From an uncultured virus (IMG/VR IMGVR_UViG_3300044635_001663) (Duplodnaviria; Heunggongvirae; Uroviricota; Caudoviricetes): a stretch of 64,000 bases of DNA. Positions 1-55,868 of this stretch are shown here, piece after piece; position 1 is the first letter of the stretch, and each line of letters begins with the position of its first letter. Below the pieces are notes generated by a model. The model searched no databases. It was not told the origin of the DNA and saw only the letters and a program-made list of their open reading frames with translations. The translations under genes and the position numbers were made by a program. The stretch spans positions 1 to 64,000 of the IMG/VR virus record IMGVR_UViG_3300044635_001663; one strand, given 5' to 3'.

Positions 1-272
1 GCTACGAGTATGACGATCTTGAAGATTTTTATGGTATCGATGCTGATGATCGTACTAATGACTACTGGGCTGGAGATGATGACCTGGAGAATGATTCTGA
101 TGATTCGTTTGATGATAGTATGGATGGTGATGCTGAGTCTGCGTTGGCTTCCGCTGGATGGGGAACCGACGAAGATTACGGTTACTATGGTGACGATGGA
201 ATAGAAGATTTCCACGCCGATGAGGCTGTGGGTTTTGTGGATTACAATGAAGATGGTCCGTATGACGATTGA
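1..272 (+). CDS. 5'-truncated, very acidic phage protein (..SMDGDAESALASAGWGTDEDYGYY..)
   Basis: Open frame from position 3 to TGA at 270-272, manually translated. D/E/Y-rich; not in the ORF track because the start lies outside the window. Confidence 0.75.
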   Translation, partial: YEYDDLEDFYGIDADDRTNDYWAGDDDLENDSDDSFDDSMDGDAESALASAGWGTDEDYGYYGDDGIEDFHADEAVGFVDYNEDGPYDD

Positions 273-280
273 GCACTCGC

Positions 281-362
281 CCTAAACCCTTTGTGCGTAA
301 GCACTTAGGGCTGGCGGGGCGGCACGAATTTGATCTAAGTCCTTATGCTACAATACTTTACG
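281..362. repeat. Paired 29-bp palindrome element, copy 1
   Basis: CCTAAACCCTT-N7-AAGCACTTAGG (281-309), 24-bp GC linker, TCTAAGTCCTT-N7-AATACTTTACG (334-362). Confidence 0.9.
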
Positions 363-1027
363 TCAACCTTACGAAATTGTAAGAAAACTTCCTGCTTGAC
401 ATCTAAAGTTTCTATGCTATACTTGTCGATATAAGAGATAGAGAAAGAGAGCGAATGATGAAAAGTGAAGAAGAAAAGCGTATCGAAGAGTATAACCGAT
501 TCATGGATGAATGGGAAAAGCGTCCTAAGAATCGTGATCTGTATGGCAATAATTGCTATCGCCCCGATGAGGTGGCGTTAACTGATGAAGAGTATGAGAT
601 GTTTGGCTAGGAGTATAAAAATGAGAAAGCTAACTCAGAGAGAAGTTGACGATCTAGAATTTGATGCTGGACTTATGGGTTTTCGAGTGGTCTACATTCC
701 GAAACCTCTCGACTGGAATCATTTCGTTCTGTATTATCTTCAACCAGAATTGACCTATGTTGGTCACTATCGTGGTTTGAATGAAGTCAAAATGGGTATG
801 CAAAAACACTACAGACCAGTAGAAACTAGGCTTGACAGCTAAGATTTTTGTGATAGAATGTCGATATAAGAAGAAGAGAAAAAGAGAATGAAAACGAAAA
901 AGAAAGTATTGACAGCACACCAGAAAGCAGTTATGCTTATGGATCGTGAGACGAATCGTGCAGTGAATCGTGTGAAGATGTTGGAACAGTTGTATCTTGA
1001 AACCATGAAAGCAAAGGAACTTGTTAA

Positions 1028-1258
1028 ATGAAGTGCGTTGTTACCCATACGGATACTTTTGGTGGCGAAGCTAACTATGGTTGGGTGAATCGATATGAGT
1101 TCATCCCAAAAAAGAATGCTTCTCAGCGTAGCGTTGTTCGTAAGGCTAAGGCTCTTGCTGGTATGACAGCTGTCAAGGCTGACACTCATGATTATGGTGA
1201 TGGCTATACTGTGAAGCCTCGCGGATATTCTCAAATCATCTTTGTTGATTTTGAGTAA
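1028..1258 (+). CDS. hypothetical phage protein
   Basis: ORF track; ends just before repeat copy 2. Confidence 0.6.
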   Translation: MKCVVTHTDTFGGEANYGWVNRYEFIPKKNASQRSVVRKAKALAGMTAVKADTHDYGDGYTVKPRGYSQIIFVDFE

Positions 1259-1278
1259 ACATTCTCCTATCCTCTCGT

Positions 1279-1360
1279 CGTAAACCCTTTGTGTTCAAGC
1301 ACTTAGGGCCGACGGGGCGGGCCGGGTTTGTTGTAAGTCCTTATCTGCCAACACTTTACG
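1279..1360. repeat. Paired palindrome element, copy 2
   Basis: Sites 1279-1307 and 1332-1360, offset 53 bp. Confidence 0.9.
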
Positions 1361-1456
1361 AGAATCCTTACAATCTCGTAAGATTCAAGTTTACCCCTTG
1401 CAATAGACGATAATAGATAGTAGAATACGATATAGAAGAAAGGCAAGGGTAAAGAC

Positions 1457-1720
1457 ATGAGTCCCGATGGAACATATAACGGTTATGCGAACTACCAAAC
1501 ATGGAATGTTTGCTTGTGGATTAGCAATGATGAAATGTTGAATGGTCTGGCTGATCAGTGCATCTCTTACGATCATTTCAAGCTTTTGCTTCGTGATGTT
1601 TTTGAGACTCATCCTGTGCGATATGAAACGCCCGATGGAGTCTCTTGGAATGATAGCGGTATCAACCTTGCGGAAATGAAAGAGTATTGGGAAGAAAATT
1701 TTTCTAAAGTTCCCGCTTGA
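1457..1720 (+). CDS. conserved-type small phage protein (YNGYANYQTWNVCLWISND motif)
   Basis: ORF with upstream promoter; N-terminal motif is typical of a widespread phage hypothetical family. Confidence 0.65.
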   Translation: MSPDGTYNGYANYQTWNVCLWISNDEMLNGLADQCISYDHFKLLLRDVFETHPVRYETPDGVSWNDSGINLAEMKEYWEENFSKVPA

Positions 1721-1790
1721 CAAATGACGATAATTAGTGTAGACTTGGCGTATGAATGGTGTGATTGGTTTTCTAACTGAAAGGGTTCTT

Positions 1791-2204
1791 ATGAACGATG
1801 TAGTTTTGTTTGGTTCGATTCTTGCGGCTGTTGCCGCTGCTGTTGTGGGTTTCGTCTTCTATTCGGTCTACGGTGGATCGAAGGCTAGCTTGGCGAATGC
1901 TCAAGAGGGTCAGGTTTTCAATTTTGAATATGAACAGCCTTTGCATGGGGAACCGAAGCGTTTCCTTGCTAAGGTGATTGAGCCTGTCTATACTCTGAGC
2001 GATTCATCTATCAAGGCTTTGAATCGCCGTAGTCGATATCGTAAGAATGACCCTGTGTTTCAGCGTACTAACCATCTGGTGACTTGCCAGACTCCTGACG
2101 GTAAGATTCGACAGTTCTATGCTGAGAGAGTGAAGAATTGCCGAAAGCCGTTGCTTGCTGGTGCTCTGTTCAAGAGCGGTGTGTCCAACCTGTTTGTGTT
2201 CTAA
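1791..2204 (+). CDS. membrane-anchored hypothetical protein
   Basis: N-terminal hydrophobic helix; promoter TTGACA(1717)-17-TAGACT upstream. Confidence 0.6.
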   Translation: MNDVVLFGSILAAVAAAVVGFVFYSVYGGSKASLANAQEGQVFNFEYEQPLHGEPKRFLAKVIEPVYTLSDSSIKALNRRSRYRKNDPVFQRTNHLVTCQTPDGKIRQFYAERVKNCRKPLLAGALFKSGVSNLFVF

Positions 2205-2238
2205 AAATAGGCAGTCTCTGCCTACTAACTGACCAACC

Positions 2239-2320
2239 CCTAAGTTGTTGCTACGGCAGCACTTAGGGCGAGGTCGGCCCGCCACGCGAGTCGTAAGTCT
2301 TTATCCCCCAACACTTTACG
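2239..2320. repeat. Paired palindrome element, copy 3
   Basis: Sites 2239-2267 and 2292-2320. Confidence 0.9.
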
Positions 2321-2349
2321 ACAATCTTTTTTTGCTCAAGTTTTTCCTC

Positions 2350-2378
2350 TTGACAGGCCGATAATAGTAGTGTAGAAT
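2350..2378 (+). promoter_or_regulatory. sigma70-like promoter with CGAT in spacer (representative)
   Basis: TTGACA-ggccgataatagtagtg-TAGAAT, 17-bp spacer, AGGAG RBS downstream. Confidence 0.8.
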
Positions 2379-2402
2379 ACAGAGAATCAAAAGGAGAAAA
2401 AG

Positions 2403-2666
2403 ATGCTGTTTACGCCATATGCTTTGACTGATTCTGTGACTCGTACTGTGAGTGATGAAAACATGGTTACTTTTAGTGGACTTTCCACTGGTGGTCGTGA
2501 GTTTTCCATAGTCACGCATCTTGATGATGCCAATCGTTGGATCAATGGAGAGTTGATTCAAGTTGCTTTCCCATATCTCAATGCTGATCAGCGTGAGGTT
2601 TTGAAGACAGGAATCGATAGTCAGAGTTGGGAAGAAATGTTTGCTGGATCGGAGGATGAAGAATGA
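2403..2666 (+). CDS. hypothetical phage protein
   Basis: AGGAG RBS; ORF track. Confidence 0.65.
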   Translation: MLFTPYALTDSVTRTVSDENMVTFSGLSTGGREFSIVTHLDDANRWINGELIQVAFPYLNADQREVLKTGIDSQSWEEMFAGSEDEE

Positions 2667-2801
2667 GTACCGATACCTATATAGTAATGAAGGGTAATAA
2701 GGTGGTAGGCTATGTTCAAGCGTACAGTACCTATCATGCTTTGTGTCAGGCTGAGAAACTTTATGGGAAGAATTTGCTGATCGAGCGAATCTCTCATAGT
2801 T

Positions 2802-2847
2802 GTCCCACCTAACCCTAGCGGGTCGGGCTGAGTGGGTATAGTCAGCC
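2802..2847. repeat. 46-bp bipartite repeat, copy A
   Basis: GTCCCACCTAA-N28-GTCAGCC. Confidence 0.75.
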
Positions 2848-3113
2848 AATAGTCGGGGCTTGACAAAGAGTCTTTAATAGAGTATATTGAGCAGAAAAGG
2901 GGAGTTTTATGTTGACAGATGACGAGCGTATGGCTGTTTGTGATTGTGTGGCCGATTTTTCTGTTCGTCTGTTTAGTGCTGCTAGGGTTGATGAGCGGGC
3001 TATACATGATGAGTTGGATATTTTCTTTGAGTTCTTTTGTAGGGCTCTTGAGATTGCCAAGAGTGAAGGTGCGGTTAGGGTTCGTGAGTCTATTGGGGCT
3101 AGTAATAACTAAT

Positions 3114-3195
3114 CGTAAGTCCTTATCCTTAAACAACTTAGGGATAGGGCGGGCGGCCGAACTTGATGTAAGTGCTTGTGTATCATAGGGTTACG
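3114..3195. repeat. Paired palindrome element, copy 4
   Basis: Sites 3114-3142 and 3167-3195. Confidence 0.9.
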
Positions 3196-3234
3196 TCAAT
3201 GCTAAAAAATTTTTGGAATTCCTACAGAAGCCTC

Positions 3235-3263
3235 TTGACAAGTGACGATAATAGATGTATACT
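3235..3263 (+). promoter_or_regulatory. sigma70-like promoter upstream of the non-coding RNA block
   Basis: TTGACA-agtgacgataatagatg-TATACT. Confidence 0.8.
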
Positions 3264-3271
3264 TAGCACAT

Positions 3272-3835
3272 AAGCAGATGAGGGCCGCTGGCAGAATGAT
3301 ATCAAAGTAGCCACGGTTAAATGGCTGTCGAGTATGGCTCAACCCTATCTGCTTTACAATACAAAACTCGTGGGTCCATGCCTTGGACTAGGTTGGGTAA
3401 CTCATTACGATAAGCATCGCATGTCGCGGCAGCGATGATGCTGACGGTGCCGGTTACGCACTGGATAGTAGTGCCAATCTATGGGGGATCGCGTCCTCAC
3501 CACGTTATAATACAATCAGTAATCGTTCCCAAGAGCCAGACAGATTGCTTCATGAACAATCTCAGGGAGGTTTCCGTGGACGGTTTCCACTAGTGTTTAC
3601 CTGGCCCAAGGGTTAAAAATATCGGGTATTAGTGGAGTATAGAACCGGAGTCGTAAATGGTTCGCTGATTACAAACAGGGGTCGGATAGAAACCAAGTTT
3701 ACTGGCTGGGTTGGATAATGCGTGATACCGGACATTATTCGTAAAACTATCGCTGGATGTAACTCAAATGGCAGAGTTCCACACTATATGTGGCGGTGTT
3801 GCGGGTTCGAGTCCCGTCATCTGGTAAGTCGATCC
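3272..3835 (+). ncRNA. putative multi-domain structured ncRNA block
   Basis: No ORF of 60 aa or more; four segments each closed by a long-range stem and separated by A-rich linkers. Confidence 0.55.
3753..3825 (+). tRNA. degenerate tRNA-like element (anticodon arm CCACA-CTATA-TGTGG)
   Basis: Acceptor CTGGATG/CATCTGG, D-arm ACTC/GAGT, T-arm GCGGG-TTCGAGT-CCCGT; non-canonical anticodon loop. Confidence 0.6.
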
Positions 3836-4527
3836 ATTAACAGCCGGTATAATAATACAAAGGAGAAAGATGAATAAAAACGAGGCGATAATTAAGGTTC
3901 TTAGGGTTTTAAGGAGCCAATCGGCTGCTGTAAATAAACCCAATCGAGAAGAGGCATTGACTTTAGCAGAAGAGCATGGTATAACTGCTAAGGAGTTGAT
4001 TGACGCTTGGGTTGAAATTTGTAGGAATATATGATCTACTTAAATATTAACGAGATCGAACGTTTGGCCGAAATTGTGGCTGAACTGGTTAAGCTGGATA
4101 TGTGTGTGATTGCTGAGTTGAAGGGGACTAGGTGGAGTATTGAGGTAACTAAATAATGGAATGGATTAGTTTTTTTGAACGACAGCCAGAAGACGGACAG
4201 GGTATTTGGTATTATGGTGAACATATTGGTGTGTGGGCTGGAGAGTATTCTTATTCTCCGAATGACCCTTTTAGTCCTCATCTTATATTTTGTCATGAAT
4301 CTCCCGGTCTGGTTGACCGAATGGATGCTCCGTGGTGGATGCTAGATGATGGAGTGATGAACAGGCCAATTAAACCGGCAAAAGATTATCCAGACGATTA
4401 TCCTAGTGGTTGAGATTATGAAAACTTTTAGTGATATGTGTGATTGTGGCAACTGTAATGAAAGTATGTATACTGTTGATAAGTATGGTCTTGTTTGGAG
4501 TTTATGCGGAGATTGTGGTTGGTGGTA

Positions 4528-4609
4528 CATAAGTTACCGCTACATAACGACTTAGAGCAAATCGGGCGGGCCGGTTTCGACGTAAGTCCTTACCACTAAA
4601 GACTTTACG
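4528..4609. repeat. Paired palindrome element, copy 5
   Basis: Sites 4528-4556 and 4581-4609. Confidence 0.9.
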
Positions 4610-4929
4610 ATTAGCAATATTTTTTCAAGATTCCCTCTTGACTTGTCGATAATAGTAGTGTAAGATACTAGCAACACGAAAGGGAAAATGATGACTGTTG
4701 CTGAATTGATCGAAGAACTGAACAAGCTGCCCCAAGATATGCTTGTGCTTGTGCCGGGTTATGAGGGTGGATACGACAATATCGAAGTTCAGAGGAATGG
4801 GGCTGTTGTTCTGGACGATAATTGGGATGGACAAGAAAAGTTTTATTGGTATAATGGGCGACACGCCTCATACTACAAGGATATGGAAGGCGACGAGCCT
4901 ACGTCATGCGTTGTTATCGGGAGAGGTAA

Positions 4930-5439
4930 ATGAAAACGGTCGAAAAACACGCCGAAGTACGATTCCATCTGCTCAATGGGCAGAATTATCGGAAGTGGCA
5001 AGTAAATATTATGCAGGGTAAGAAAAGGGTTGACCAATTTTATGTAGATCCTACAGAATACCAGTTAGAGATGCGTGGTTGCAAGCTGGTAAACAAAGTA
5101 GCTAGGGCGAAATGGGTCAACAAGAAACAGAAAAAGAATGTGAGTGGATGGGTTCAGTGTGAAGAAGTTATGCTTCGCAAGGATTTTTATCCATCTTTGC
5201 CTATTGACAATCTTGAGAAGTTGTATTATAATCCCATTCGTGATGTTCACTGGCGACGAGAGAGTGATGGTGGTGAATTTGTTTGGGATAACAGTGAGTA
5301 TGACACCTTAGTTACCGATGGGCGACAGGTTCATATTCTGGAAGAACGTAACGGAAATTTTGACGGTATTTACGAGATAGACCCTAAGTATACAGAAAGT
5401 TTTGGAATTTATGATCAAAATCGAACTGAGCGTGCGTGA
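4930..5439 (+). CDS. hypothetical phage protein
   Basis: GAGG RBS; ORF track. Confidence 0.65.
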   Translation: MKTVEKHAEVRFHLLNGQNYRKWQVNIMQGKKRVDQFYVDPTEYQLEMRGCKLVNKVARAKWVNKKQKKNVSGWVQCEEVMLRKDFYPSLPIDNLEKLYYNPIRDVHWRRESDGGEFVWDNSEYDTLVTDGRQVHILEERNGNFDGIYEIDPKYTESFGIYDQNRTERA

Positions 5440-5785
5440 GTCCCTGAACATGATTGCAAACGGTTGCAGTCTTGATATGTTCGACAAGATTGTGTGTGCG
5501 TTGGAAGTGGCACTGGGTGTGAACCAGCGTCGTATGGTAACGATTACCGGAGGTCTGACTCTGGACAATCGTATCCATTCCATCAAGGCTATTCGGCTTC
5601 ATACCGGATGGGGCTTGAAGGAAGCCAAGGATTGGAGTGACTATCTGGTTGGTGGCTGGCATTACGACAAGTTCGTTCCTGCCAAGTCCGGGGCCAAGCA
5701 GAGTATCACTCTGAAAACACCCGAAGCGGCAGAGGCACTGCTGCGTGATCTGGTGGGTTTGGGTTGTGAGGGTTATCTCTCATGA
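5411..5785 (+). CDS. protein with ribosomal protein L7/L12 C-terminal-like domain
   Basis: IKAIRLHTGWGLKEAKDW resembles the bL12 CTD motif IKxVRxxTGLGLKEAKD. Confidence 0.65.
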   Translation: MIKIELSVRESLNMIANGCSLDMFDKIVCALEVALGVNQRRMVTITGGLTLDNRIHSIKAIRLHTGWGLKEAKDWSDYLVGGWHYDKFVPAKSGAKQSITLKTPEAAEALLRDLVGLGCEGYLS

Positions 5786-5867
5786 CCTAAAGCCTTGTCC
5801 CTAAAGAACTTAGGACGAGGCGGGGCGGCCGAATTTGACGTAAGTCCTTGCTACCAAACAGCTTAGG
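5786..5867. repeat. Paired palindrome element, copy 6
   Basis: Sites 5786-5814 and 5839-5867; begins immediately after a stop codon. Confidence 0.9.
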
Positions 5868-6070
5868 ACAAAATCAAAAATCTTTGAGAGACACTCAAGT
5901 TCGCCCTTGACAATGACGATACTATACTGTAGAATGAGAGTATCACAAGTCAAGACTCCTCGATGATGCCAACAAGAAAAACCATCACGACGGACTTGAC
6001 AAGTGGGTAACAGTAACGTATACTGGTACTAGAACGATTTGGAAACTATAACAATTTTGGAGAAGATAAG

Positions 6071-6328
6071 ATGAAGAAGTTTACTTTTGCTGTTGACGTT
6101 GTGGCTGATGAGCTTGATCGTGATTCTGTGGTTGATTCGATTCGTGATTGCCTGAGTACCAGCCTTCCCGGCGATGTTCATGCTAATGTCAAGGCCGGTG
6201 AGGTCAAGGCGTTCAGTGAGCAGGGATATAAGGTGTGGCGAGCTAGGGTTACGGGTGTTACTGCCGAGCAGGCCGGTGATGCCCATGATGGTAAGGTAGA
6301 AAAGGAAGCTACCGAAGCGGTTGCATGA
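6071..6328 (+). CDS. hypothetical protein
   Basis: GGAG RBS; ORF track. Confidence 0.65.
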   Translation: MKKFTFAVDVVADELDRDSVVDSIRDCLSTSLPGDVHANVKAGEVKAFSEQGYKVWRARVTGVTAEQAGDAHDGKVEKEATEAVA

Positions 6329-6350
6329 TCGACCGTAAGGAGTTATAATG

Positions 6351-6388
6351 GCTGCGAGCCTCCACGGGACGCCGTGGGGGCTTGCGGT
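6351..6388 (+). other. 17-bp GC-rich hairpin before the tRNA pair
   Basis: GCTGCGAGCCTCCACGG-GACG-CCGTGGGGGCTTGCGGT. Confidence 0.6.
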
Positions 6389-6394
6389 ATTGAC

Positions 6395-6466
6395 GGCCCC
6401 ATAGTTAAATGGATATAATAAGTGACTTCTAATCTCTAGTTGCAGGTTCGATTCCTGCTGGGGCTA
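6395..6466 (+). tRNA. tRNA-Arg(TCT)
   Basis: Cloverleaf; anticodon loop CTTCTAA; GGTTCGATTCC T-arm. Confidence 0.85.
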
Positions 6467-6471
6467 TTGTT

Positions 6472-6545
6472 GGGGGTGTAGATCAATTGGTTAGATCGCT
6501 AGCTTGTCACGCTAGAGGTTGCGGGTTCGAGTCCCGTCACTCTCG
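6472..6545 (+). tRNA. tRNA-Asp(GTC)
   Basis: CTAGC-TTGTCAC-GCTAG anticodon arm. Confidence 0.9.
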
Positions 6546-6550
6546 TTTGT

Positions 6551-6632
6551 CGTAAACCCTTTGAGCATAAGCACTTAGGGCAGGCCCGGCCGCCCCGGTT
6601 CATCGTAAGTCCTTATACCACAACAACTTGCA
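6551..6632. repeat. Paired palindrome element, copy 7
   Basis: Sites 6551-6579 and 6604-6632, directly after tRNA-Asp. Confidence 0.9.
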
Positions 6633-6710
6633 TCAAGAATAATTTTTTGAAGTTTTTAGCTTGACTATGCCGATACTATAGTGTAGAATCGGTAGACACA
6701 GGAGAAGAAC

Positions 6711-7415
6711 ATGAAAACTGCTGACGGTAATGATAAGTTGGGTAAGGGTTGCATTGTGGTTAGTCGTCCGGTTGGCGATACTTGCCCGCCCGATTGCGAC
6801 TATCTCGGAAACGGCTGCTATGCCGAAGCTACTGAAAATCAGTATAAAAATGCCCGTACTGCCGGTTTTGCTAATGTCATAACGGAAAAGAATAAAATCC
6901 GTGCTATGATTCTGGAAGCAAAACGTCGTGAGAAGTCTATTCGCTGGCATGAGCGTGGCGACTGGTTTCTCAATGGCGAACTTGACCTAGACTATGTTGC
7001 TAATGTAACGTGGGCTTGTGAGAGTATTCTTGCCGATGGTGATACGTTGCCCGATATGTGGTTTTATACTCATATCTACGATTCTCGGCTTGTGAGTCTG
7101 GAAAAGTATATGAATGTGTACGCTAGTGTGCATGACGATAACGATATGGGCGAAGCACTGGCACAGGGGTTCAAGCTGTTCGCATGGTGTGACAGCGACA
7201 TGAAGATTGCTCCGAAGCGTCCTAAGAGCAAAGCAAAAGCCGAAGCATGGCGACAAGCACTGCCGAAGCTGGTGGTTCTCAATGCCACAAAGTTTGTGGT
7301 ATGTCCAGAAATCCGTCGTGGTAGGTCAGAAATCACTTGCACCGGCACTAAAGATAGTATATCATGTGACTTGTGTGTTCGTGGTTTGGCTAATGTCTTG
7401 TTTCCAGCCCATTGA
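6711..7415 (+). CDS. Gp88-like Cys-rich phage protein
   Basis: TCPxxC..CYA, IRWHERGDW, WFYTH and C-terminal CxxC motifs resemble the phage Gp88-like family. Confidence 0.55.
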   Translation: MKTADGNDKLGKGCIVVSRPVGDTCPPDCDYLGNGCYAEATENQYKNARTAGFANVITEKNKIRAMILEAKRREKSIRWHERGDWFLNGELDLDYVANVTWACESILADGDTLPDMWFYTHIYDSRLVSLEKYMNVYASVHDDNDMGEALAQGFKLFAWCDSDMKIAPKRPKSKAKAEAWRQALPKLVVLNATKFVVCPEIRRGRSEITCTGTKDSISCDLCVRGLANVLFPAH

Positions 7416-7426
7416 AAGGAATAAAA

Positions 7427-7996
7427 ATGAGCTACGTTGGATTGTATGATGATGCAGGAAGTAAAAATGCTTTCTATATTGTCAAAGATAAAAAGATTGG
7501 CCGGAAGCGCGTGGGCTTCAAAGAGTTTGAGAACGAACAAGAGGCACAGTTTGCCCATCGTGTTCAGTCTCATTTGGCACAGTTTGATTTGGCCCCTATG
7601 GTATATGGGGATGTTGGTTTTATTCGTAGGCATGATGGTGAAATGACTTGTTATGGTTATTTGACCGAAGTTGCTCGGCCTATGCCAGAATGTCATGATG
7701 ACGAATATTGTGATGGTGAATGTTTTCAGAGTTGCTGTAAGAATGGTATCGCTATCATGCAAGTGGTGTCTTATTTGAGCGAATATGGTTTGGATTATAA
7801 CGATGCCCATAGGGGTAACTTTGGTTTTGTTCGACGCAAAGGATACTGGATTCCAGTTGTAATTGACGTAGGTATTGAGAGTTTTAGCGATTGGGATGAA
7901 AATATTTATGGACAGTTTGATTATGCTGCTGACGAGTTTGATGAATACGGGCGATGTAATTGTGTTCAATGCAAAAAGTTCCGAGAGGAAGAATAA
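7427..7996 (+). CDS. small protein-kinase-like (PKL fold) protein
   Basis: FKEF lysine, LAPMVY, DAHRGN catalytic loop, VIDVG (DFG-equivalent); paralog at 48587. Confidence 0.6.
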   Translation: MSYVGLYDDAGSKNAFYIVKDKKIGRKRVGFKEFENEQEAQFAHRVQSHLAQFDLAPMVYGDVGFIRRHDGEMTCYGYLTEVARPMPECHDDEYCDGECFQSCCKNGIAIMQVVSYLSEYGLDYNDAHRGNFGFVRRKGYWIPVVIDVGIESFSDWDENIYGQFDYAADEFDEYGRCNCVQCKKFREEE

Positions 7997-8233
7997 TGAG
8001 CAAATACTATATCAAATGTGGGACACTAGAACTAATTTATTCCTGCAATAAATGTCCACGGGATGCTGCGATGGATGCTATATGGGAAACAAATGAAAAT
8101 GATACACTAGATGAGCATATCTATCTTGATGAACGTGGATATAAAGACTATACAAATGCTGATGGATTAACTTGCGTATTACATACTAGCCATATTCTAA
8201 AAGATGCCGGATGGACTTTAGAGTAAGACTAGC

Positions 8234-8315
8234 CGCAAACCCTTACTGCGACAGCACTTAGGGCGAGCGTGGCCGCCCGGCTTTGACGTAAGTCCTTATC
8301 CCACAACGCTTTAGA
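8234..8315. repeat. Paired palindrome element, copy 8
   Basis: Sites 8234-8262 and 8287-8315. Confidence 0.9.
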
Positions 8316-8815
8316 GCAAATCTAAAAATCTTCTAAAGTTTCTACGCTGGATTGGTCGATAATGTAGATATGAGAACGAGACGAGAATCAACAAGGGGTG
8401 AGAGAATGATCCAGTGGGTTGGGATTGTGATTACGATTTTAGGTTTGGCATATACGGGAATCAAGGACTACCAGAAAGGGGACATAAAATTTCCCAAGAT
8501 GCCTCAAAAACAGGTCTTGACAAAGGTAGTTTATCCGATACAATACTGTCTGATGGCTTACGACCCTAACATTGATAGAATTTTTTACCTACACGAAAAT
8601 GGAATCTGGTATGATTACCCTCCACAACAACGACGATATTCGACCACGCCGCAACCATATCAAGCTCAAGGTCAGGCCGCAGTGGCAAGTCCCTACGGGA
8701 CACAAGGAGCATCGGTATACCGTTATGGACAATCGCCCCAAGCGTCAACGAACCCGATCCGCTGAAAATCGCAGGGCTTGCGACAACGGAGACTATTGAG
8801 TATAATAGTAGGATT

Positions 8816-8888
8816 GCCGATGTAACTCAGTTGGTAGAGTAGCAGTTTTGTAAACTGCCTGTCATCAGTTCGATTCTGATCATCGGCT
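8816..8888 (+). tRNA. tRNA-Thr(TGT)
   Basis: GCAGT-TTTGTAA-ACTGC. Confidence 0.9.
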
Positions 8889-8889
8889 C

Positions 8890-8960
8890 TCCGGGATGGT
8901 GAAACGGTATCACAAAGGATTTTGGTTCCTTTTTTCTACGTTCGAATCGTAGTCCCGGAA
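8890..8960 (+). tRNA. tRNA-Gln(TTG)
   Basis: AAGGA-TTTTGGT-TCCTT. Confidence 0.85.
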
Positions 8961-8965
8961 TTTAT

Positions 8966-9037
8966 TGGCTCGTAGCTCAATGGTCGAGCTGGCGGCTGTT
9001 AACCGCCCGGTTGTAGGTTCGAGTCCTACCGAGCCAG
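8966..9037 (+). tRNA. tRNA-Asn(GTT)
   Basis: GGCGG-CTGTTAA-CCGCC. Confidence 0.9.
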
Positions 9038-9039
9038 TT

Positions 9040-9126
9040 GGAATCTTGGCCGAGTGGTTTAAGGCAGCGGTTTACTAAACCGCCGAGGGTTAAAATCCTC
9101 CGTGGGTTCGAATCCCTCAGATTCCG
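9040..9126 (+). tRNA. tRNA-Ser(ACT), long variable arm
   Basis: GCGGT-TTACTAA-ACCGC; long variable arm GAGG..CCTC; G discriminator. Confidence 0.85.
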
Positions 9127-9177
9127 CTAAAGATTCTCTTGACAACAGACGATAACTATGGTATGATCAAACAACAC

Positions 9178-9253
9178 GGGGCGTAAGGTAAGCCGGTTGC
9201 ATCCGACACTCTTATAAGGTGTTCATAGGTCTGTTCGACTCAGACACGCCCTA
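9178..9253 (+). tRNA. tRNA-Ile(TAT), atypical D-arm
   Basis: ACACT-CTTATAA-GGTGT; T-arm GTCTG-TTCGACT-CAGAC; acceptor GGGGCGT/ACGCCCT. Confidence 0.75.
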
Positions 9254-9284
9254 TTCGGAGGCTGACGATTGAGTTACGATGGCT

Positions 9285-9356
9285 GGCCCTATAGTCTAAC
9301 GGCTAGGACGACAGCCTTTCACGCTGTAGATTGGAGTTCGATTCTCCATAGGGTCA
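9285..9356 (+). tRNA. tRNA-Glu(TTC)
   Basis: ACAGC-CTTTCAC-GCTGT. Confidence 0.9.
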
Positions 9357-9359
9357 TTA

Positions 9360-9405
9360 GTTTCTGCTAATCCTTCGGATTTGGAAGTTTTGGGAGTAGT
9401 CAGCC
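9360..9405. repeat. 46-bp bipartite repeat, copy B
   Basis: GTTTCTGCTAA-N28-GTCAGCC with internal AATCC-TTC-GGATT. Confidence 0.65.
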
Positions 9406-9664
9406 AGAATTTCTAAGCCTTGACCACTTGACAAGTCGATATTGATATGGTAGACTATTGGAACAAGAAAGGAAACCTGAGATGAAGAATCTTCGTATCT
9501 ATGATATTGTGACTGAGGACGGTAAGACCCTGGCCGACATTCAATTGTCCGTGCAAGAGGATTTTGATTGGGTCGATGTATTTGATAAGCTGTATGATAT
9601 GACCAGTGAGAATGTAGAAAGCTATTCTTACGAGGAGACTACAGTAAATCCCGAATAGTTTGAT

Positions 9665-9737
9665 GGGCCTTTAGCTCAATTGGCAGAGCAAGGAGCTTTT
9701 AACTCTTAGGTTCGGGGTTCGAGTCCCCGAGGGCCCA
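9665..9737 (+). tRNA. tRNA-Lys(TTT)
   Basis: AGGAG-CTTTTAA-CTCTT. Confidence 0.9.
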
Positions 9738-9789
9738 CTTGACAGAGACAATTGTTGGTGTAGAATACAGGTAAGAAAGGGAGTAAATT

Positions 9790-9969
9790 ATGAGATATGA
9801 AGATCACTACGACGGCTACAATTATGACTATGATGATCTTCTAGAAAATACTGAGGATCTTGGTCTAGAAGAAGAACCTTGGATGCAAGACATTGAGGAG
9901 GATGATGATCAGGTTCCATCTTATGGAAAAAATTATTATCCAAACATTTCAGAAGAAGATGACGATTAA
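9790..9969 (+). CDS. 59-aa very acidic protein (MRYEDHYDGYNYDYDDLLE..SEEDDD)
   Basis: Own promoter and GGAG RBS; manually translated, below the ORF-track cutoff. Confidence 0.7.
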   Translation: MRYEDHYDGYNYDYDDLLENTEDLGLEEEPWMQDIEEDDDQVPSYGKNYYPNISEEDDD

Positions 9970-10064
9970 TATTGTGGATGCTTCTAGGTGGGACTAGAAT
10001 CTTTTCTATTATTTCTTTCTTTTCTTGATAAAGTACGTTCGAATCGTACCATCCACTCTTTTTT

Positions 10065-10568
10065 ATGAACACTTTCCAGCAAGAACTTGATGATTTTCGT
10101 CGTACCCCTGACGGAAAGATTATCCAAGGCGCTGCCCATACCAGCAGAGTATTGAATCACAAATATCGAAATAGTGTGATTATCAAGGCTATCTGTTCTC
10201 TGCGTAAGATTGAGAATAATTTTGATAGTATTGCTTGCTGTGGAGTAAGTGGCTTGATGGTGGTACCACAGATTGCAGAGATTCTTAATAAGAATATTAT
10301 TGTTATTCGTAAGGGTGAGCGACGGTATAGTGAATTCTTTATCGAAGGCGTTGCTCCATCTAATTATGTTATTGTGGATGATTTGATTTGTTCGGGAAGC
10401 ACAGTTAAACGCATTATGAACAATATTCATGATGATGTTCCACGAGCAAAATGTATTGGTGCATATTTTTATATGGGAGAAGAGTGCGCCTATAATGCTT
10501 CCAATTCTAAACTTTTTGAGAAGCAGTTTGGAACGATCATCCTAAACCCTTACCAGCCAAAGACTTAG
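10065..10568 (+). CDS. type I phosphoribosyltransferase
   Basis: PRPP-binding motif VIVDDLICSGST. Confidence 0.8.
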   Translation: MNTFQQELDDFRRTPDGKIIQGAAHTSRVLNHKYRNSVIIKAICSLRKIENNFDSIACCGVSGLMVVPQIAEILNKNIIVIRKGERRYSEFFIEGVAPSNYVIVDDLICSGSTVKRIMNNIHDDVPRAKCIGAYFYMGEECAYNASNSKLFEKQFGTIILNPYQPKT

Positions 10569-10622
10569 AACAAAGCTGGCCCGCCCCGGCCTCCGTAAGT
10601 GCTTACGCAGCAACGACTTACG
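10541..10622. repeat. Paired palindrome element, copy 9
   Basis: Sites 10541-10569 and 10594-10622; supplies the PRTase stop codon. Confidence 0.9.
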
Positions 10623-10720
10623 ACACGAAATTTTTTCCAAAGTTTTTGCTTGACAGTGACGATAACATACTGTAGAATGAGTGAAGTAGAACGATTGAAC
10701 ACAACACGAAAGGGATGATT

Positions 10721-11671
10721 ATGGCTCATGCAGTTGAACAGATGATGTTTGTTGGTGCGACCCCGTGGCATGGTCTTGGTAACCAGCTTGACGAAGCTCC
10801 CACAGTTTCGGAGGCGATGACTGCCGCCGGTTTGGATTGGGAAGTTGGTCTGAAGGATTTAGTCACGGTGGACGGTCAACCCGTTCCGGCCCGTGCTACC
10901 TATCGCAAGACCGACGATAGTATTCTGGGCGTTGTCGGCCCGCGATACACTCCGCTGCAAAATAGCGAAGCGTTCGATTGGTTCCAGCCATTTCTGGACG
11001 CTGGCGAGTGTGCATTGCATACTGCCGGTTCTCTCCATAGTGGTCAGAAAGTTTGGGTTCTGGCCCAACTGAACCGCGACAATAGCGAGATCGTGAAGGG
11101 CGACGAGGTTGGGAAGTTTATTCTTCTCAGCAATTCGCACGATGGCACGACCGCTATCCGGGTTGGCTATACGCCGATCCGCGTTGTGTGTGCAAACACT
11201 ATGGCGATGGCCCATAGCAAGAGCAGTGGCTCCAAGTTGATTCGTATTCGTCACACACGTTCCAGCAAGACCAATCTGGAAAACGTGCGAGATATTATGG
11301 ATAACATTAACATGGAGTTTGAAGCGACTGCGGAGCAGTTCAAGTTCCTCGCATCGAAGAACTTCAATCAGGCCGACGTTCGCCGGTATGTCAAGGTGAT
11401 GCTCGACATCGACGGTACGCCGGACGATCAGATCAAGACTCGTACCAGAAATATCATGGACGAGATTCTGGCTCTGGTCGAAGGCCCGAAGCAGAGTGCA
11501 ACGGGGGTTCGTGGAACGTGGTGGGCCGCGTACAACGGCTACAACGAGTATCTGAATTACAACAAGGGTCGCACCGAAGATAATCGGCTCGACAGCCTGT
11601 GGTTTGGACTCAACGCGAACGACAATACCAAGGCTTTGGAAAAGGCTATGGACTTCGCCCAAGCACTCTAA
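10721..11671 (+). CDS. DUF932-family phage/plasmid protein
   Basis: PWHGLG, AGLDWEV, YTPLQN, LLSNSHDG, TPIRVVCANT motifs. Confidence 0.85.
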   Translation: MAHAVEQMMFVGATPWHGLGNQLDEAPTVSEAMTAAGLDWEVGLKDLVTVDGQPVPARATYRKTDDSILGVVGPRYTPLQNSEAFDWFQPFLDAGECALHTAGSLHSGQKVWVLAQLNRDNSEIVKGDEVGKFILLSNSHDGTTAIRVGYTPIRVVCANTMAMAHSKSSGSKLIRIRHTRSSKTNLENVRDIMDNINMEFEATAEQFKFLASKNFNQADVRRYVKVMLDIDGTPDDQIKTRTRNIMDEILALVEGPKQSATGVRGTWWAAYNGYNEYLNYNKGRTEDNRLDSLWFGLNANDNTKALEKAMDFAQAL

Positions 11672-11697
11672 TCTCCTTCGCCATGGGGGTTGCACGG

Positions 11698-11733
11698 GAG
11701 CCGCCACTCAGCAATGGGTGGCGGTTCTTTTTT
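11698..11733 (+). terminator. intrinsic terminator
   Basis: GAGCCGCCACTCA-GCAA-TGGGTGGCGGTTC followed by T6. Confidence 0.85.
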
Positions 11734-11750
11734 GTAGATGTTCTGCTTGA

Positions 11751-11932
11751 CGTAAACCCTTACCAGTAAAAGACTTACGTCGAAAGCGGCCCGCGAATTT
11801 AGTCCTAAGTTCAATACTGGCAAGGACTTACGAAAAGTTTGTCAAAGAATCTCACAAGTTCCCTATTGGCAATGGGTTACGATGTCGATATACTGTATAG
11901 TGATGTAAGGTGTTATCTGGCAAAGGGTTAGG
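11751..11932. repeat. Paired palindrome element copy 10 plus two further sites
   Basis: Sites 11751-11779, 11804-11832, 11853-11881, 11904-11932. Confidence 0.85.
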
Positions 11933-11987
11933 TTAAAATAGTAATAGAATTGTAATAAGCTATTGGATATTTTTCCAACCTTTATTT

Positions 11988-12033
11988 GTCTCGCCTAATC
12001 CAACGGATTCGCTGACGTTGCTGATAGTCAGCC
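11988..12033. repeat. 46-bp bipartite repeat, copy C
   Basis: GTCTCGCCTAA-N28-GTCAGCC with internal AATCC-AAC-GGATT. Confidence 0.75.
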
Positions 12034-12065
12034 GGAATATCGTAGTAGTAACAAGCTGCTCTTAT

Positions 12066-12094
12066 TCTAAGTTCTTATGTTTCAACCACTTGCG
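12066..12094. repeat. single 11-7-11 palindrome site
   Basis: TCTAAGTTCTT-ATGTTTC-AACCACTTGCG. Confidence 0.65.
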
Positions 12095-12674
12095 ACAAGT
12101 CTTAGAGTGTGGTATAATGAAAAGAGTAACAACGATAGTAACAAACTGATCAATAGTTGAGACTTATTCTCAATAGATAAAGATGGTTAGATATTGTTGT
12201 CTAATCTCATAGTCAGGAAAAAACCGGGAGCCCTTGTGATGCAGAAGGAAAGAATTATTGTGACCGATGAAAATCGACAGGATATTACTAGTATTTATTG
12301 CCACAGACTTTTGGATGATATGGACTTTGATACCCTCTATAGTTTTGCTTATGATATGTTGAAAGATAACAAGGAAGGATTGACTAATGAAATGTTGACC
12401 AATCAAATTATTGACTATTACCCTGATATTCTGGAGAACTAATGCCTATTCTTGCAATTCTGGTGATTTTATACGTTGTTATTGATGGAGCTATTAAATT
12501 TTATGCAGATAGATATTAGTAAACAAGAAGCATGGAAACTAATGGATGCTATTAGTGCCTACATGAAAGATTATACTGTTACCGGTCCTGTTCATAAAAC
12601 GTTCGACAATATTACTAAAAAACTAAAGGAGGTTGTCAAAGAATAGTAACTGGTGGTGAGAGACCGGTTAGTAT

Positions 12675-12703
12675 TGTAAGTTGTTTGCTCTTAAGGATTT
12701 GCG
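12675..12703. repeat. single 11-7-11 palindrome site
   Basis: TGTAAGTTGTT-TGCTCTT-AAGGATTTGCG. Confidence 0.6.
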
Positions 12704-14209
12704 TCAAAAGTGACGATATGGTACAATGGAGCTAACGGATACGATATCGTAGCTTGATAGTTGTTTGCTTGTTCTTATTATCTCTTCCTAATTTTATAAA
12801 GGAATCTATATTGGCCATTCTGCTGCTAGTCTTCATCCTGTTTTTTACCAAGTGAGTCATACAAACATTATATAGGTCAAAGCCTGAAAAAGCAAGGTCT
12901 GACACACCATTCCTTAACCCTTATAGGCTGAATTCTTAGAAGAGTAATGATACAGAAGAAGATTGATTAAACACTGTTTTGTACTTCAAACTTATTCTTT
13001 CTTACCCAGCTGTATAATACATAAAAAAACCTTATGGTACTGTCAAGCTAAAAAATTTTTTATCACCAATCGCAAGGAGTTTATCTATAGCTTAAAGCAT
13101 CTTCTGCTATAACCATTAATGTTGGTTACGCACAGGGTTGATCTGTTCTGGAAGTCGGCCAAAGAAGTCGATAGAACCATCAGGGAGGTCTTGTGGCCGT
13201 CATTTTTTAATAGCATGTGAAACGAGAGCAACACCATCCTTTAATTGATTCTGCGAGGCCCAAGGATAAATTAATCTTACAATATACCATTAGTATCTCA
13301 AGACGAATCAGCGAACGCTGAAGTTAAGAGATTCCAGATAAAAAAAGATTAATAAAATCTCTTTGTGCTATTAGGCCGCTTTCGGTATAATAACCAGAGT
13401 CAACGGAGCCAATGGTCAAGCACTTGGTGAGACAAATGCGGGACTGATGGAATCATGGGCAAAGAGTTGTTTTTTAACTTTTAACCATGAGGTGTATTAT
13501 GCGTGCTAGATATGTTAGTCAGATTAATCGTAAGGAAATTCAGAGAAAGTATATTGATCAGATATTAGGAGAATTAGATTTCATGCAGATTAAGGATAGA
13601 CTAAGAGACTACCTTGAGCATGAAAAAGATAAAGAATCTAATTATGCCTTAGAAGCTGAGATACGGAAAGAAGCACCAGATGTTTTGGTAGAAAATTGGG
13701 AAGATTTTAATGGTCCTGCTACTCTCACAGAAGAGGAGCATCATCATGCCTAAGAAATTTCACAGAATAATTTCTTTTGAAGTAGAGGGTGAAATTTATG
13801 ATCATTCTACTACTCCAGAAGATATTCTAAAAAGTTATGACTGGCATTTTAAGGGTTTTCATGATAACCATGAAGACAAATGCTTCTTAGAATCTTCTCA
13901 TGATGATCGTCGTGGACGTATTACTAAAGTTATTCGAAAGAATAAGATTAGTAAAACCGATAAGGCAGATACAGAAACTTTTACAATTAACCAATGAGGT
14001 GCTTTATGAATTATACATTAGTTTATTGGAGTGTTGGAACAATCGTGACATTGTTAGCATTAGTATCGTTATATTATTACTCATGTCATTGTTCTCCTCC
14101 AGCGATTAAATAATAAGTTCTACTTGAGGATCAAAGCCCCAGGTATACTATAAATAGGGGATCAGTCAGGAATGATTGGTCTCCTATTTTTATTTAAATT
14201 GGTGGGTCT

Positions 14210-14255
14210 GTCTCACCTAAATATATAGGGTTGGTTTTTATGGCTATAGTCAGTC
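14210..14255. repeat. 46-bp bipartite repeat, copy D
   Basis: GTCTCACCTAA-N28-GTCAGTC. Confidence 0.75.
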
Positions 14256-14481
14256 GGAATATGGTATCCATTTCTTTGAATAAGAATTTGGATTGTAATG
14301 ATTTGTGTGGGAAAATTCAAAATCTCATTAATAGTTATTCCAAACAAAATCCCCAATCTCATGATACTTTGTTACGAATAGAAGTAGTTCCTATCAATGA
14401 TTCTATAGAATGTTTATTACCAAAATTAGAATTTAAAAAATGATATTGACATATCTATAAAAAATTTTACTATAACTAATA

Positions 14482-18001: not shown

Positions 18002-18087
18002 GTTAACCCTGTTCCCGTCGAATGTTTACGCTTAGTGCGTAGATCAACTAGGCTAATTGCCGACAGAGTAGGCGGGGCGGGGTTAAC
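18002..18087 (+). ncRNA. putative small structured RNA
   Basis: 17-bp closing stem with G-U pairs and two inner hairpins; GC-rich island in an AT-rich context. Confidence 0.5.
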
Positions 18088-28591: not shown

Positions 28592-28663
28592 GCGAGAGTA
28601 GCTCAATGGCAGAGCGTTAGGTTTCCAACCTAAATGTTGAGGGTTCAAGTCCCTTCTCTCGCT
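28592..28663 (+). tRNA. tRNA-Gly(TCC)
   Basis: TTAGG-TTTCCAA-CCTAA. Confidence 0.9.
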
Positions 28664-39493: not shown

Positions 39494-39840
39494 GGGCTAG
39501 TAAAGGTATCGACAGGTAAAATAGGTATAGATAGCATCGACTGGTTAATCGACCGGCCAGTTTAAAAGTCGATTAAATTTGTTAATTGGCAAGACAACTC
39601 TTGCCCTCGCTGCCTAATTAGGTGACGAGTGGGGCGGCATGAGCCTTATTACCAAATCATGCTGACTCCGATAATCGGATATGGTAGTCCTACCAGACAT
39701 AAATGGGAATGATGATTGTACTCAATCTGACACAGATAATTCTGATAGCTTTGTTGGTAGTGTGATAACAACCAACTAACGATGTAGAAATTTATATTGA
39801 TGTTTATTCTGGACGCGAGTTCGACTCTCGCCTAGTCCAC
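39494..39840 (+). ncRNA. ssrA: tmRNA, tag (A)GKTTLALAA
   Basis: Acceptor GGGCTAG/CTAGTCC with G3-U70, T-arm GCGAG-TTCGACT-CTCGC, tag reading frame 39588-39617 ending LALAA*. Confidence 0.92.
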
Positions 39841-40407
39841 TTATATTATGATAAATTCTAATGACGTAATTTCACATACTGTAAATACAGAATTTACACA
39901 GTTGATAATATCTAATGCTAAAAAAGCAGAGATTGGAGGAAAGTCTCAAATTAGAGACTCTAATAAAAGAGCATCTAATTTAGCAGAAGATCAATTGGTT
40001 GGACAAATATCGACCTATTGTGCGTCGATGATCCTTACTGGTTCTTCAGAGGGATATATTCAAGCAAGAGAAAAAGCAAATGCTAATCCTCTCACTGGAG
40101 ACAATGGAGTAGATATAGTTGGATTACCTAATGTGGATATTAAAGGTAGTCTGATGAGATATTCTAATAATCCTCTTAACTATAGATTATTAGTTCGACC
40201 AAAAGAAAGACACAAAAATTGGATTTATGTATTGGCATTAGTTCCAAAAGAAAGACCATATAAAACATATCTTGTTGGCTGGGCCAATGATAATGATCTG
40301 CCATCAAAACCTTATGATGGAGAAATAATATCTTTACATGGGGCATATGTTATTGAGGCTAAAAATTTAAGGAAAATTGAAGAATTAATTTCTCTTCAAA
40401 TATAATT

Positions 40408-55049: not shown

Positions 55050-55868
55050 TACTATGCATGAAGATTATAGCTATAATGATGACGATGAACATGATTATGA
55101 CGATGTACCAAAAAACTATAAATATTACTTTAAGTTTGATCCAGCAGCGTGGGATGTTTGGGGAAAATGGCTATACGATGCGTTAAACGAAATAGTTGAT
55201 TCTTCGCCAAACACATGGTATACTATGCCGGATGTGTACGGTTTTCCATACAAATCGGTTCCTGTGAATAGTTACTTCTCCAATACTGGTAAGGGTGATA
55301 CCTTCCAGTATTTGGGGAATAACTATCAGGGTCAACCTATATGGAAAAATAAATACTTTGTATCAGATCCTGTTAATATGATATATAGAAAACATATAGA
55401 AAGTCATCCAGTATACTTTTTACAACAACCTCACTATTACAAAGGATTGTTCGATATACTGAACTAAATTTATGCAAAAAGATGAATGGTATATCATAGA
55501 TGATTTAAAAAAGTTTATAGAGTCAACCAGAGTATTAGTTTTTGATATTTTTGGAAATACAAATCAACAAGATATAGACGAATTATCTCTTTTACTATCA
55601 GACTTATCTGAAGAAGAAAAGCAAGAAATAGACACAGTATTGAGTCAACAAGAATGTGAGGTGTTAGCTAAAGATTTTATTACGACAGAAGTTAATAAGA
55701 AAACAAAAAAATATAGATACATATTATCTAACAAGAAATATATGGAGATGATAGAATGTTTTAATAGTAGAATGATTAGCAATATGCTAAATACATTAGT
55801 AAATAAAGGCTTATTGGAAACAGCTTATGATAACGAATCGAACGACTTTATATTTTGGGTAAAAAATA

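Follow-up and report, generated by a model that had tools for sequence, protein, structure and literature searches.

Paired palindromes ahead of early promoters in an uncultured lake-water phage: candidate docking sites for a host DNA-bending protein

The stretch analyzed here (the window) comprises positions 1 to 64,000 of an uncultured Caudoviricetes virus, IMG/VR record IMGVR_UViG_3300044635_001663, and contains near its start ten 82-bp elements, each a pair of 29-bp palindromes, that punctuate a run of small early genes and mostly precede promoters. The source contig (G000) is a viral record of 126,336 bp originating from lake-water metagenomes. All of the elements fall in an early region on the + strand (positions 1-12000) that is cut at the contig start and contains small + strand open reading frames (ORFs), mostly of unknown function, plus 10 tRNA genes. 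This region is richer in GC (42-46%) than positions 12001-64000 and the remaining contig (~33%), the step between them is sharp, and the same step borders the ~23-kb early region of a close relative (G001, a closed assembly of 228,972 bp) at both ends. Counter-silencing or a host-like composition are guesses as to its cause. The early block also held 58 promoter-like sites, compared with 26 in shuffles, many of them near-consensus sites of the sigma-70 type.

The contig encodes a split DnaE-type polymerase, DnaB, a primase, a UvsX-like recombinase, rIIA/rIIB-like proteins, a sigma-like factor, and a tmRNA, as well as many sugar-modifying enzymes; no virion genes were recognized on it. CheckV rated the contig as 91% complete; it begins inside the early region and may be just part of a genome. 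Megablast of positions 1-12000 against GenBank phages returned no match, leaving the contig without a close GenBank phage relative. Among the metagenomic relatives, G004 was 100% identical to window 1-13000 and reached 2,290 bp farther upstream with two additional pairs there, and the early region of G001 (scanned stretch ~28 kb) carried 22 pairs and 6 single palindromes. The “direct terminal repeat” of G001 was a mere 123-bp assembly overlap, and long terminal redundancy was rejected for this genome.

All ten elements described in an earlier note, which a model had made from the letters of the window, were present, starting at 281, 1279, 2239, 3114, 4528, 5786, 6551, 8234, 10541, and 11751. 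Every one consisted of two palindromes (11-bp arm, 7-bp core, 11-bp arm) with starts exactly 53 bp apart (10/10), so that two 29-bp units are separated by a linker of 24 bp, and all 20 of the 7-bp cores differed, in keeping with the non-identical cores of the earlier note. A scan of the whole contig with a half-site weight matrix built from the 40 half-sites of the ten elements, a check proposed in the same note, returned 23 palindromes with a 7-bp core, all within 281-12703: the 20 paired units and single palindromes at 11904, 12066, and 12675. The other 113 kb of the contig yielded no palindrome with a 7-bp core, and scans with other core lengths gave only a few off-register echoes; the matrix is circular for its 20 training sites and not for the absence elsewhere or the three singles. 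The strict pattern STAA-N4-TT-N7-AA-N4-TTAS matched 15 times in the window, always inside 282-11931, vs. 0.06 +/- 0.24 times in 100 shuffles, and these accounted for 15 of the 17 matches on the contig.

The proposed placement of the elements after a stop codon, terminator, or tRNA was borne out copy by copy. Elements 1, 2, 3, 4, 6, and 8 start 1-35 bp past a stop codon. Element 1 (281-362; palindromes 281-309 and 334-362 around a GC-rich linker; matrix scores 31.8 and 23.1) lies 8 bp past the stop of ORF 3-272, element 2 (1279-1360; 31.8 and 26.0), which has an orthologue in G001, past that of ORF 1028-1258, element 3 (2239-2320; 27.5 and 25.7) past ORF 1791-2204, and element 4 (3114-3195; 32.6 and 19.1) 1 bp past the stop of ORF 2909-3112. 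Element 6 (5786-5867; 31.0 and 32.0), the core GTCCCTA of which is retained in orthologues, abuts the stop of ORF 5402-5785, and element 8 occupies 8234-8315 (25.7 and 28.0). Element 7 (6551-6632; 31.8 and 26.5) starts 5 bp past tRNA-Asp, and element 10 (11751-11832; 30.2 and 25.4), the last pair, lies downstream of the only good intrinsic terminator (11696-11729). Element 9 (10541-10622; 27.0 and 32.7) indeed provides the stop codon of ORF 10065-10568, and so, as the earlier note had missed, does element 5 (4528-4609; 12.8 and 31.0) for ORF 4418-4555, the end of which overlaps its degenerate first palindrome (P1). This P1 (4528) and the second palindrome (P2) of element 4 (3167), which resembles an inverted P1-type unit, were the weak units. 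Homology with G001 begins inside element 5, where G001 has 1.8 kb extra. Element 9 is inverted relative to elements 1-8 (82-bp profile scores of 48 forward vs. 65 reverse) and element 10 is likewise of the inverted type (39 forward vs. 50 reverse).

The feature is real and widespread. At least 164 loci matching a pattern for one palindrome were found in the viral contig collection, and among the matches listed neighboring palindromes stood 53 bp apart 163 times, a count over overlapping loci that was not deduplicated; the others were spaced by 50 (24), 52 (15), 42 (9), 49 (8), or 48 bp (4), or were single palindromes. Deduplication gave at least 119 unique 53-bp pairs with full flanks in uncultured viral contigs, and the family occurred in lake metagenomes under 24 study codes. 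The suggestion that a 53-bp spacing sets both sites on the same helical face stands for this lineage and fails for the relatives spaced 42, 48, 49, 50, or 52 bp. The elements are confined to early regions: the 27 strict matches in G001 all lie in 625-14291 or 222093-227989 of its 228,972 bp, and the 19 in the phage genome G005 all lie in 10-8294. In a bacterial genome collection, the strict paired pattern was detected at 22 loci from several phyla, all on contigs of metagenome-assembled genomes (MAGs) and none in isolates; these are most likely mis-binned phage DNA, so they give no pointer to the host.

Nine of the ten elements precede a promoter, in line with the earlier claim that most do, with the -35 box starting 27-39 bp past the element. 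These + strand promoters lie at 396-423 after element 1 (TTGACA-16-TATACT, 11/12 consensus matches), 1398-1426 after element 2 (TTGCAA-17-TAGAAT, 9/12), 2350-2378 after element 3 (11/12), 3235-3263 after element 4 (11/12), 4638-4666 after element 5 (9/12), 5907-5935 after element 6 (11/12), 6661-6689 after element 7 (10/12), 10650-10678 after element 9 (11/12), and 11866-11894 after element 10 (10/12). Element 8 has no good promoter downstream, with no + strand promoter-like site of at least 9/12 matches between 8316 and 8516. Across the viral contigs, a stringent downstream promoter was present at 47 of the 74 elements (among 119) for which the gene direction could be determined; by orientation, 38 of these 74 were forward, 4 reverse, and 32 ambiguous.

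The distance between element and promoter was helically periodic. From the element end to the -35 box, distances clustered at 17-19, 28-29, and 39 bp with a few near 50, and 101 unique cases, merged into 93 families by joining near-identical ones, gave a Rayleigh R of 0.45-0.48 for a period of 10.5-11 bp, the cases being non-independent as the modules are homologous; a random-position control (n = 25) was not significant. The 52-bp lineage showed the same distance phase (29, 39-40, and 49 bp; n = 9) and single palindromes a weak form of the same periodicity (n = 42, R 0.28). The spacers between element and promoter are phased A/T tracts, e.g., ACAAAAATAATTTTTC..AAG, which we take to resemble a full UP element. 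Within the promoters, the spacers (e.g., 2350-2378, 3235-3263, 5907-5935, and 10650-10678) share a CGATAAT/CGATACT block, and a TG precedes the -10 box; both recur in distant contigs, and this conservation exceeds what a plain sigma-70 spacer requires.

Three single palindromes follow the last pair at the boundary of the early region, in identical order in the source contig, G001, and the relative G002, and two of the three are found in a further relative, G003. The first (11904-11932; score 20.1) starts at about +3 of promoter 11866-11894, a placement retained in G001 and G002. The second (12066-12094; score 24.6), present in G001, G002, and G003, has a right arm in which CTTACG is changed to CTTGCG and doubles as the -35 box (TTGCGA, 12090) of the + strand boundary promoter 12090-12118 (10/12, TG ahead of the -10 box). 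The third (12675-12703; score 24.5), with the same distribution as the second, has the arm changed to ATTTGCG and running into the -35-like TTGCGT (12698-12703), followed 17 bp later by TG-TACAAT; this promoter was recognized by eye and is not in the promoter scan list. The -35 boxes of both the second and the third single thus stand 17 bp before a TG-extended -10 box. These positions over core promoter elements are operator-like and suggest a direct action on transcription by any reader of the palindrome.

Conservation within the elements was concentrated in the half-sites. TAA, TT, AA, and TTA were invariant or above 90% in all four half-sites of the 119 unique pairs while the 7-bp cores drift, and the linker reached 87% GC in columns 35-48. 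In an alignment of 129 oriented elements (125 distinct), compensatory change in the arms was sought for two local hairpins (74.6% of cells paired vs. 75.4% with shuffled partners; 495/500 shuffles at or above the observed value) and for one whole-element hairpin (65.8% vs. 66.3% shuffled), with no excess in either. Linkers folded no better than shuffles (mean z -0.04), the terminator scan called no element as an intrinsic terminator, and no U-tract was present. Elements gave no Rfam match at the gathering score on the window nor at E up to 0.1 on 3200-10100, the matches in those scans being tRNAs, the tmRNA, and DUF3800-VIII RNA, none over an element. The hairpin and terminator readings were dropped on these grounds. 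A role at the RNA level, with transcribed palindromes acting as RNase III-type processing sites, stabilizers, or factor-dependent terminators between cassettes, would draw on the position of the elements just past stop codons, where read-through would transcribe them, and on whole elements folding somewhat better than shuffles (mean z -2.3), as any palindrome does. It is highly improbable given the absence of compensatory change in 22 or 39 tested pairs, the 3-4 fixed mismatches of the P1 arms, the missing U-tract, and the inversion of two of the ten window copies relative to transcription. As the four half-sites are conserved independently and without covariation, the palindromes are best read as predicted double-stranded protein-recognition sites.

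Indirect sequence evidence thus points to a repeated platform for protein binding. The earlier note had offered two models, and the platform for two cooperating dimers is the one that fits, the recombinase cassette array being unsupported; independent half-site conservation, the helically periodic promoter distance, and singles over the -35 box or +1 would all fit such a platform. The explanation favored here, which may well be correct but is held tentatively, is that a composite early-promoter module of ~155 bp has the 82-bp unit as its upstream half, where a host IHF-type bending protein docks. The module would run in order from a palindrome through a GC-rich 14-bp center to the second palindrome, an A/T-tract UP-element-like spacer, and a near-consensus sigma-70-type promoter. 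The palindromes would serve as docking sites for a protein reading two mirror half-sites, for which a host IHF-type DNA-bending protein is the best candidate, and with two of them bound on either side of the stiff GC-rich segment, the DNA ahead of the promoter would be folded on a fixed helical face. Bending of this kind may tune, insulate, or protect ~25 strong tandem early transcription units upon DNA entry, each of these being a possible direction of its effect on transcription.

The candidacy of IHF arises from the half-site sequence. The published IHF consensus is WATCAANNNNTTR, and its WATCAR sits between the two IHF kinks (10.1101/382655). AA-N4-TTR was present in 91-97% of half-sites, CAA-N4-TTR in 54% and 66% of the outer halves and 14-16% of the inner halves, and full WATCAA in at most 8%. 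The full consensus was found in register in 17/30 palindromes at 50-bp spacing and 5/11 at 42-bp spacing. In sister lineages the core is GATAATC or similar, and the palindrome then holds a complete IHF consensus, often on both strands; by eye, this was the case for 13 of the 14 listed palindromes of G008. The CAA-N4-TTR core occurred in 29/30 palindromes of the 50-bp lineage, and in the 53-bp lineage the perfect consensus was found in 16/231 and the core on one strand in 170/231. The HU/IHF family (PF00216) was detected in 0/5 phage genomes and the sites would be needed at time zero, which favors a host factor. IHF sites are found upstream of phage early promoters such as Pe of Mu and PL of lambda, and the elements resemble these in having, ~70-90 bp ahead of a strong early promoter, a predicted bending-protein site that shows dependence on the helical face. 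They differ in that the sites are palindromic double sites, paired, and repeated ~25 times per genome, with the WAT part lost in the window (0/23) and extra positions conserved.

Several observations weigh against docking of a host IHF-type protein. None of the 23 window palindromes carries the full IHF consensus and only 15 of 23 have CAA-N4-TTR, on one strand each. In the inner halves, conservation of the N4 bases (GGAC) and the outer CG reaches 0.8-0.9, a constraint that is not predicted by the IHF consensus. Because WATCAR lies between the IHF kinks, a protein centered on the dyad would be out of register; two overlapping IHF sites that exclude each other describe the palindrome better, though such a design would be odd. 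That the host has an IHF is an assumption. The lineages spaced 48-50 bp are out of helical phase, and promoter distances of an off-phase 33-bp class occur, two of them in the window; one-turn steps in the ladder could also stem from unit-length changes of the A/T tracts in place of selection. Furthermore, near-consensus promoters with UP-like spacers should need no activator.

The same features can be read as operators of a dedicated sequence-specific regulator, phage-encoded or injected, that switches the whole early regulon, using the pairs at ~25 early promoters and the singles over -35 or +1 for shut-off or class-II-type activation. This alternative is unlikely on balance but keeps appreciable weight, since each half-site has 11-12 well-conserved bases, including positions that are free in the IHF consensus, the boundary singles over core promoter elements are conserved as described above, the -35 distance is helically periodic, and the sites are confined to one regulon-like region. 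In its broadest form, which is given a similarly low but real probability, the palindromes would be operators of an undescribed global early-gene switch run by a non-IHF dimeric protein at ~50 sites per genome in hundreds of uncultured aquatic phages, with pairs ahead of each early promoter in a fixed helical phase and singles over -35 or +1 of three promoters at the start of the following gene block; one factor would then time the early-to-middle transition, and the modules would double as cassette-exchange points. Against a dedicated regulator, no candidate for a phage-encoded binder emerged when the early-region ORFs and selected ORFs of at least 60 aa from 12 kb to the contig end were scanned with Pfam and PHROGs (the Pfam scans skipping three of these, 63686-64324, 83994-85082, and 102852-105107), and the only helix-turn-helix regulators seen were the sigma-like protein and a single domain of antitoxin type. 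What G000 and G005 have in common is limited to the replication module and a few early cassettes, and no ORF family near elements occurred in more than 11 of 32 contigs. That the site consensus is near-identical in phages sharing few genes is more in line with a conserved host factor than with one co-evolving in the phages.

Cassettes do turn over at the modules. The relatives were not collinear with breakpoints unrelated to the sites; cassettes had been gained and lost at the elements, and the window region differed from G001 by unit indels in register with the modules. At window-equivalent position -428, one module is a chimera: up to and including the element it matches G001 module 8335, and beyond, starting with the -35 box, it matches G001 module 9243, so that a 907-bp unit is eliminated. 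The switch occurs at the -35 box and spacer, so the crossover of this single resolved event lies in the promoter and not in the 7-bp cores, where the earlier note had proposed testing for breakpoints. Two ORFs that abut in the source contig and in G002 are separated in G001 by a 155-bp element-plus-promoter and in G003 by 245 bp of unrelated sequence. In six pairwise comparisons, 69 of 218 breakpoints fell within modules, which make up 17-22% of the regions, an enrichment that is inflated, and to that extent weakens the case, as conserved modules remain alignable while cassettes diverge and the comparisons share events. Two early proteins (51 and 73 aa; window 455-842 and G005 2478-2840) were ~80% identical, which hints at recent cassette exchange between phages. 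Under the composite-module explanation, ordinary homologous recombination between module copies would delete, insert, and swap the intervening cassettes because the module recurs about every kilobase.

Site-specific recombination had been the other proposal for these cassettes, in the form of an integron- or pdif-like array in which a tyrosine or serine recombinase would cut the 7-bp cores. Integron attC, dif/pdif, and the res sites of Tn3/gamma-delta combine inverted arms of 11-13 bp with a core of 6-8 bp, and their two dimer sites are separated by about five helical turns. The 11-7-11 layout resembles such core sites, cassettes come and go at the elements, and two dimer sites 53 bp apart are reminiscent of res sites I and II of Tn3/gamma-delta. 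For tyrosine recombinases, differing cores block strand exchange between copies, and with 20 different cores in the window such exchange would be blocked. The recombinase gene noted as lacking in the window was also lacking from five phage genomes, three of them rated 100% complete (PF00589, 0/5; control detected 14/14), as were serine recombinase (PF00239) and Y1 transposase (PF01797) genes. With the mapped crossover lying outside the cores and the strict paired pattern occurring in MAG contigs and in no isolate bacterial genome, the probability of a site-specific array is close to negligible.

A further alternative is that the elements are signals for transactions of the incoming or replicating genome, such as programmed nicks, injection pauses, or packaging marks. 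Their confinement to the part of the genome that probably enters and is expressed earliest would suit this role. In contigs of four lake-water runs aligned to 1-13000, unitigs tended to break at elements and the joints were mostly tRNA-to-tRNA or element-to-element matches from relatives; contig breaks at repeats are expected from assembly. No pile-up of molecule ends was seen in these contigs, which cannot show ends or rare junctions and speak neither for nor against circles or nicks. The coupling to promoters would be unexplained, and such signals are very improbable.

The closest described counterparts are the promoter-early stem-loops (PeSLs) of the T4-type phages RB49/phi1, T4/PST, and KVP40/nt-1 (PMC2839356, PMC4122927). 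A PeSL, located between ORFans, consists of a G/C-rich stem-loop terminator, an AT-rich stretch upstream of the promoter, and a strong promoter of the sigma-70 type (PMC2839356), and recombination between copies shuffles cassettes and makes mini-circles (PMC2839356, PMC4122927). The elements share with PeSLs the repetition of small regulatory cassettes between the ORFans of a hyperplastic early region, the order of stop codon, G/C-rich motif, AT-rich stretch, strong sigma-70-type promoter, and Shine-Dalgarno sequence, and the recombination between copies that yields cassette indels and chimeric cassettes, here the 907-bp unit and the 155-bp module. The hallmark of PeSLs is a stable terminating stem-loop, but the elements lack a stem-loop signal or terminator call and instead carry paired 29-bp mirror-site palindromes, set at a fixed 53 bp and located ahead of the AT-rich stretch; the contig phage is also non-T4, with a split DnaE-type polymerase, though rIIA/rIIB-like and UvsX-like genes are present. 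The elements could be plain PeSL-type repeats, kept as promoter-upstream or terminator sequence and as recombination homology, with palindromes read by no specific protein. The layout through to the ORFan is identical to that given for PeSLs (PMC2839356), and the chimeric module and unit indels would agree. This is nevertheless improbable, as no stem-loop or terminator was called, homology alone leaves unexplained the invariant TAA/TT/AA/TTA in distant phages with drifting cores, and singles over promoter cores are also unexplained. The verdict reached from the sequence is that the elements are probably a protein-docking variant of PeSL-type early cassettes. A rigid mirror-palindrome pair around a GC clamp was described in no paper found by full-text search of open-access papers and preprints.

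The elements can also be compared with bacterial repeats. BIME/RIP and REPIN sequences are extragenic repeats past stop codons with two inverted palindromic units around a linker, some of which bind IHF or gyrase; REP units form hairpins and are mobilized by RAYT (Y1) transposases, and the IHF site of BIME-1 is its linker. The phage elements are similar as extragenic repeats just past stop codons with two palindromic units around a linker. They differ in showing no hairpin covariation and no PF01797 gene (0/5 genomes), and their IHF-like sites are the flanks and not the linker.

Other features were noted within and beyond the early region. Between the strong promoter 3235-3263 and the tRNA-Ile(tat) gene, ~490 nt at 3264-3751 are free of ORFs and partially conserved in G001 and G003; this stretch had no Rfam match, and 3270-3750 folded no better than shuffles (z -0.33). 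At 9974-10062, a tRNA-like stretch was seen by eye with potential acceptor-stem ends, a GTTCGAATC T-loop motif, and an AT-rich insert of ~30 nt, which was called by neither ARAGORN nor Rfam. Two more tRNAs lie beyond the early region at 28592 and 46921, the tmRNA gene is located at 39494-39842 (Rfam 96.7 bits, tag peptide GKTTLALAA), and a DUF3800-VIII RNA match at 18003-18086 was barely above its gathering score (40.7 vs. 40.2 bits). An actin-like protein of the Volactin family is encoded at 59075-60076 (Pfam 1.3e-63), near an ORF at 55472-55903 with a weak F-actin-capping-like match. The split DnaE-type polymerase consists of two ORFs of 624 and 520 aa at G000 contig positions 115819-120129 (L167:11819-16129) with a 230-aa RNase_T-type exonuclease ORF between them; both polymerase ORFs and the exonuclease (63% identity) also occur in G005.

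The organization, timing, and insulation of dozens of very strong early promoters in large lytic phages are little known beyond T4, T7, T5, and SPO1, and the same applies to the swapping of small host-takeover genes by such phages. The module described here is sharply defined and abundant and has a testable geometry in its 53-bp pair, GC clamp, and 10.5-bp distance ladder to the promoter. If a host bending protein reads it, the module would show the recruitment of nucleoid proteins by phages on entry, and if a dedicated factor does, it would reveal a new regulon. Either way, the modules are natural breakpoints for early-gene cassettes and provide synthetic biology with a promoter-insulator part that is compact and portable.

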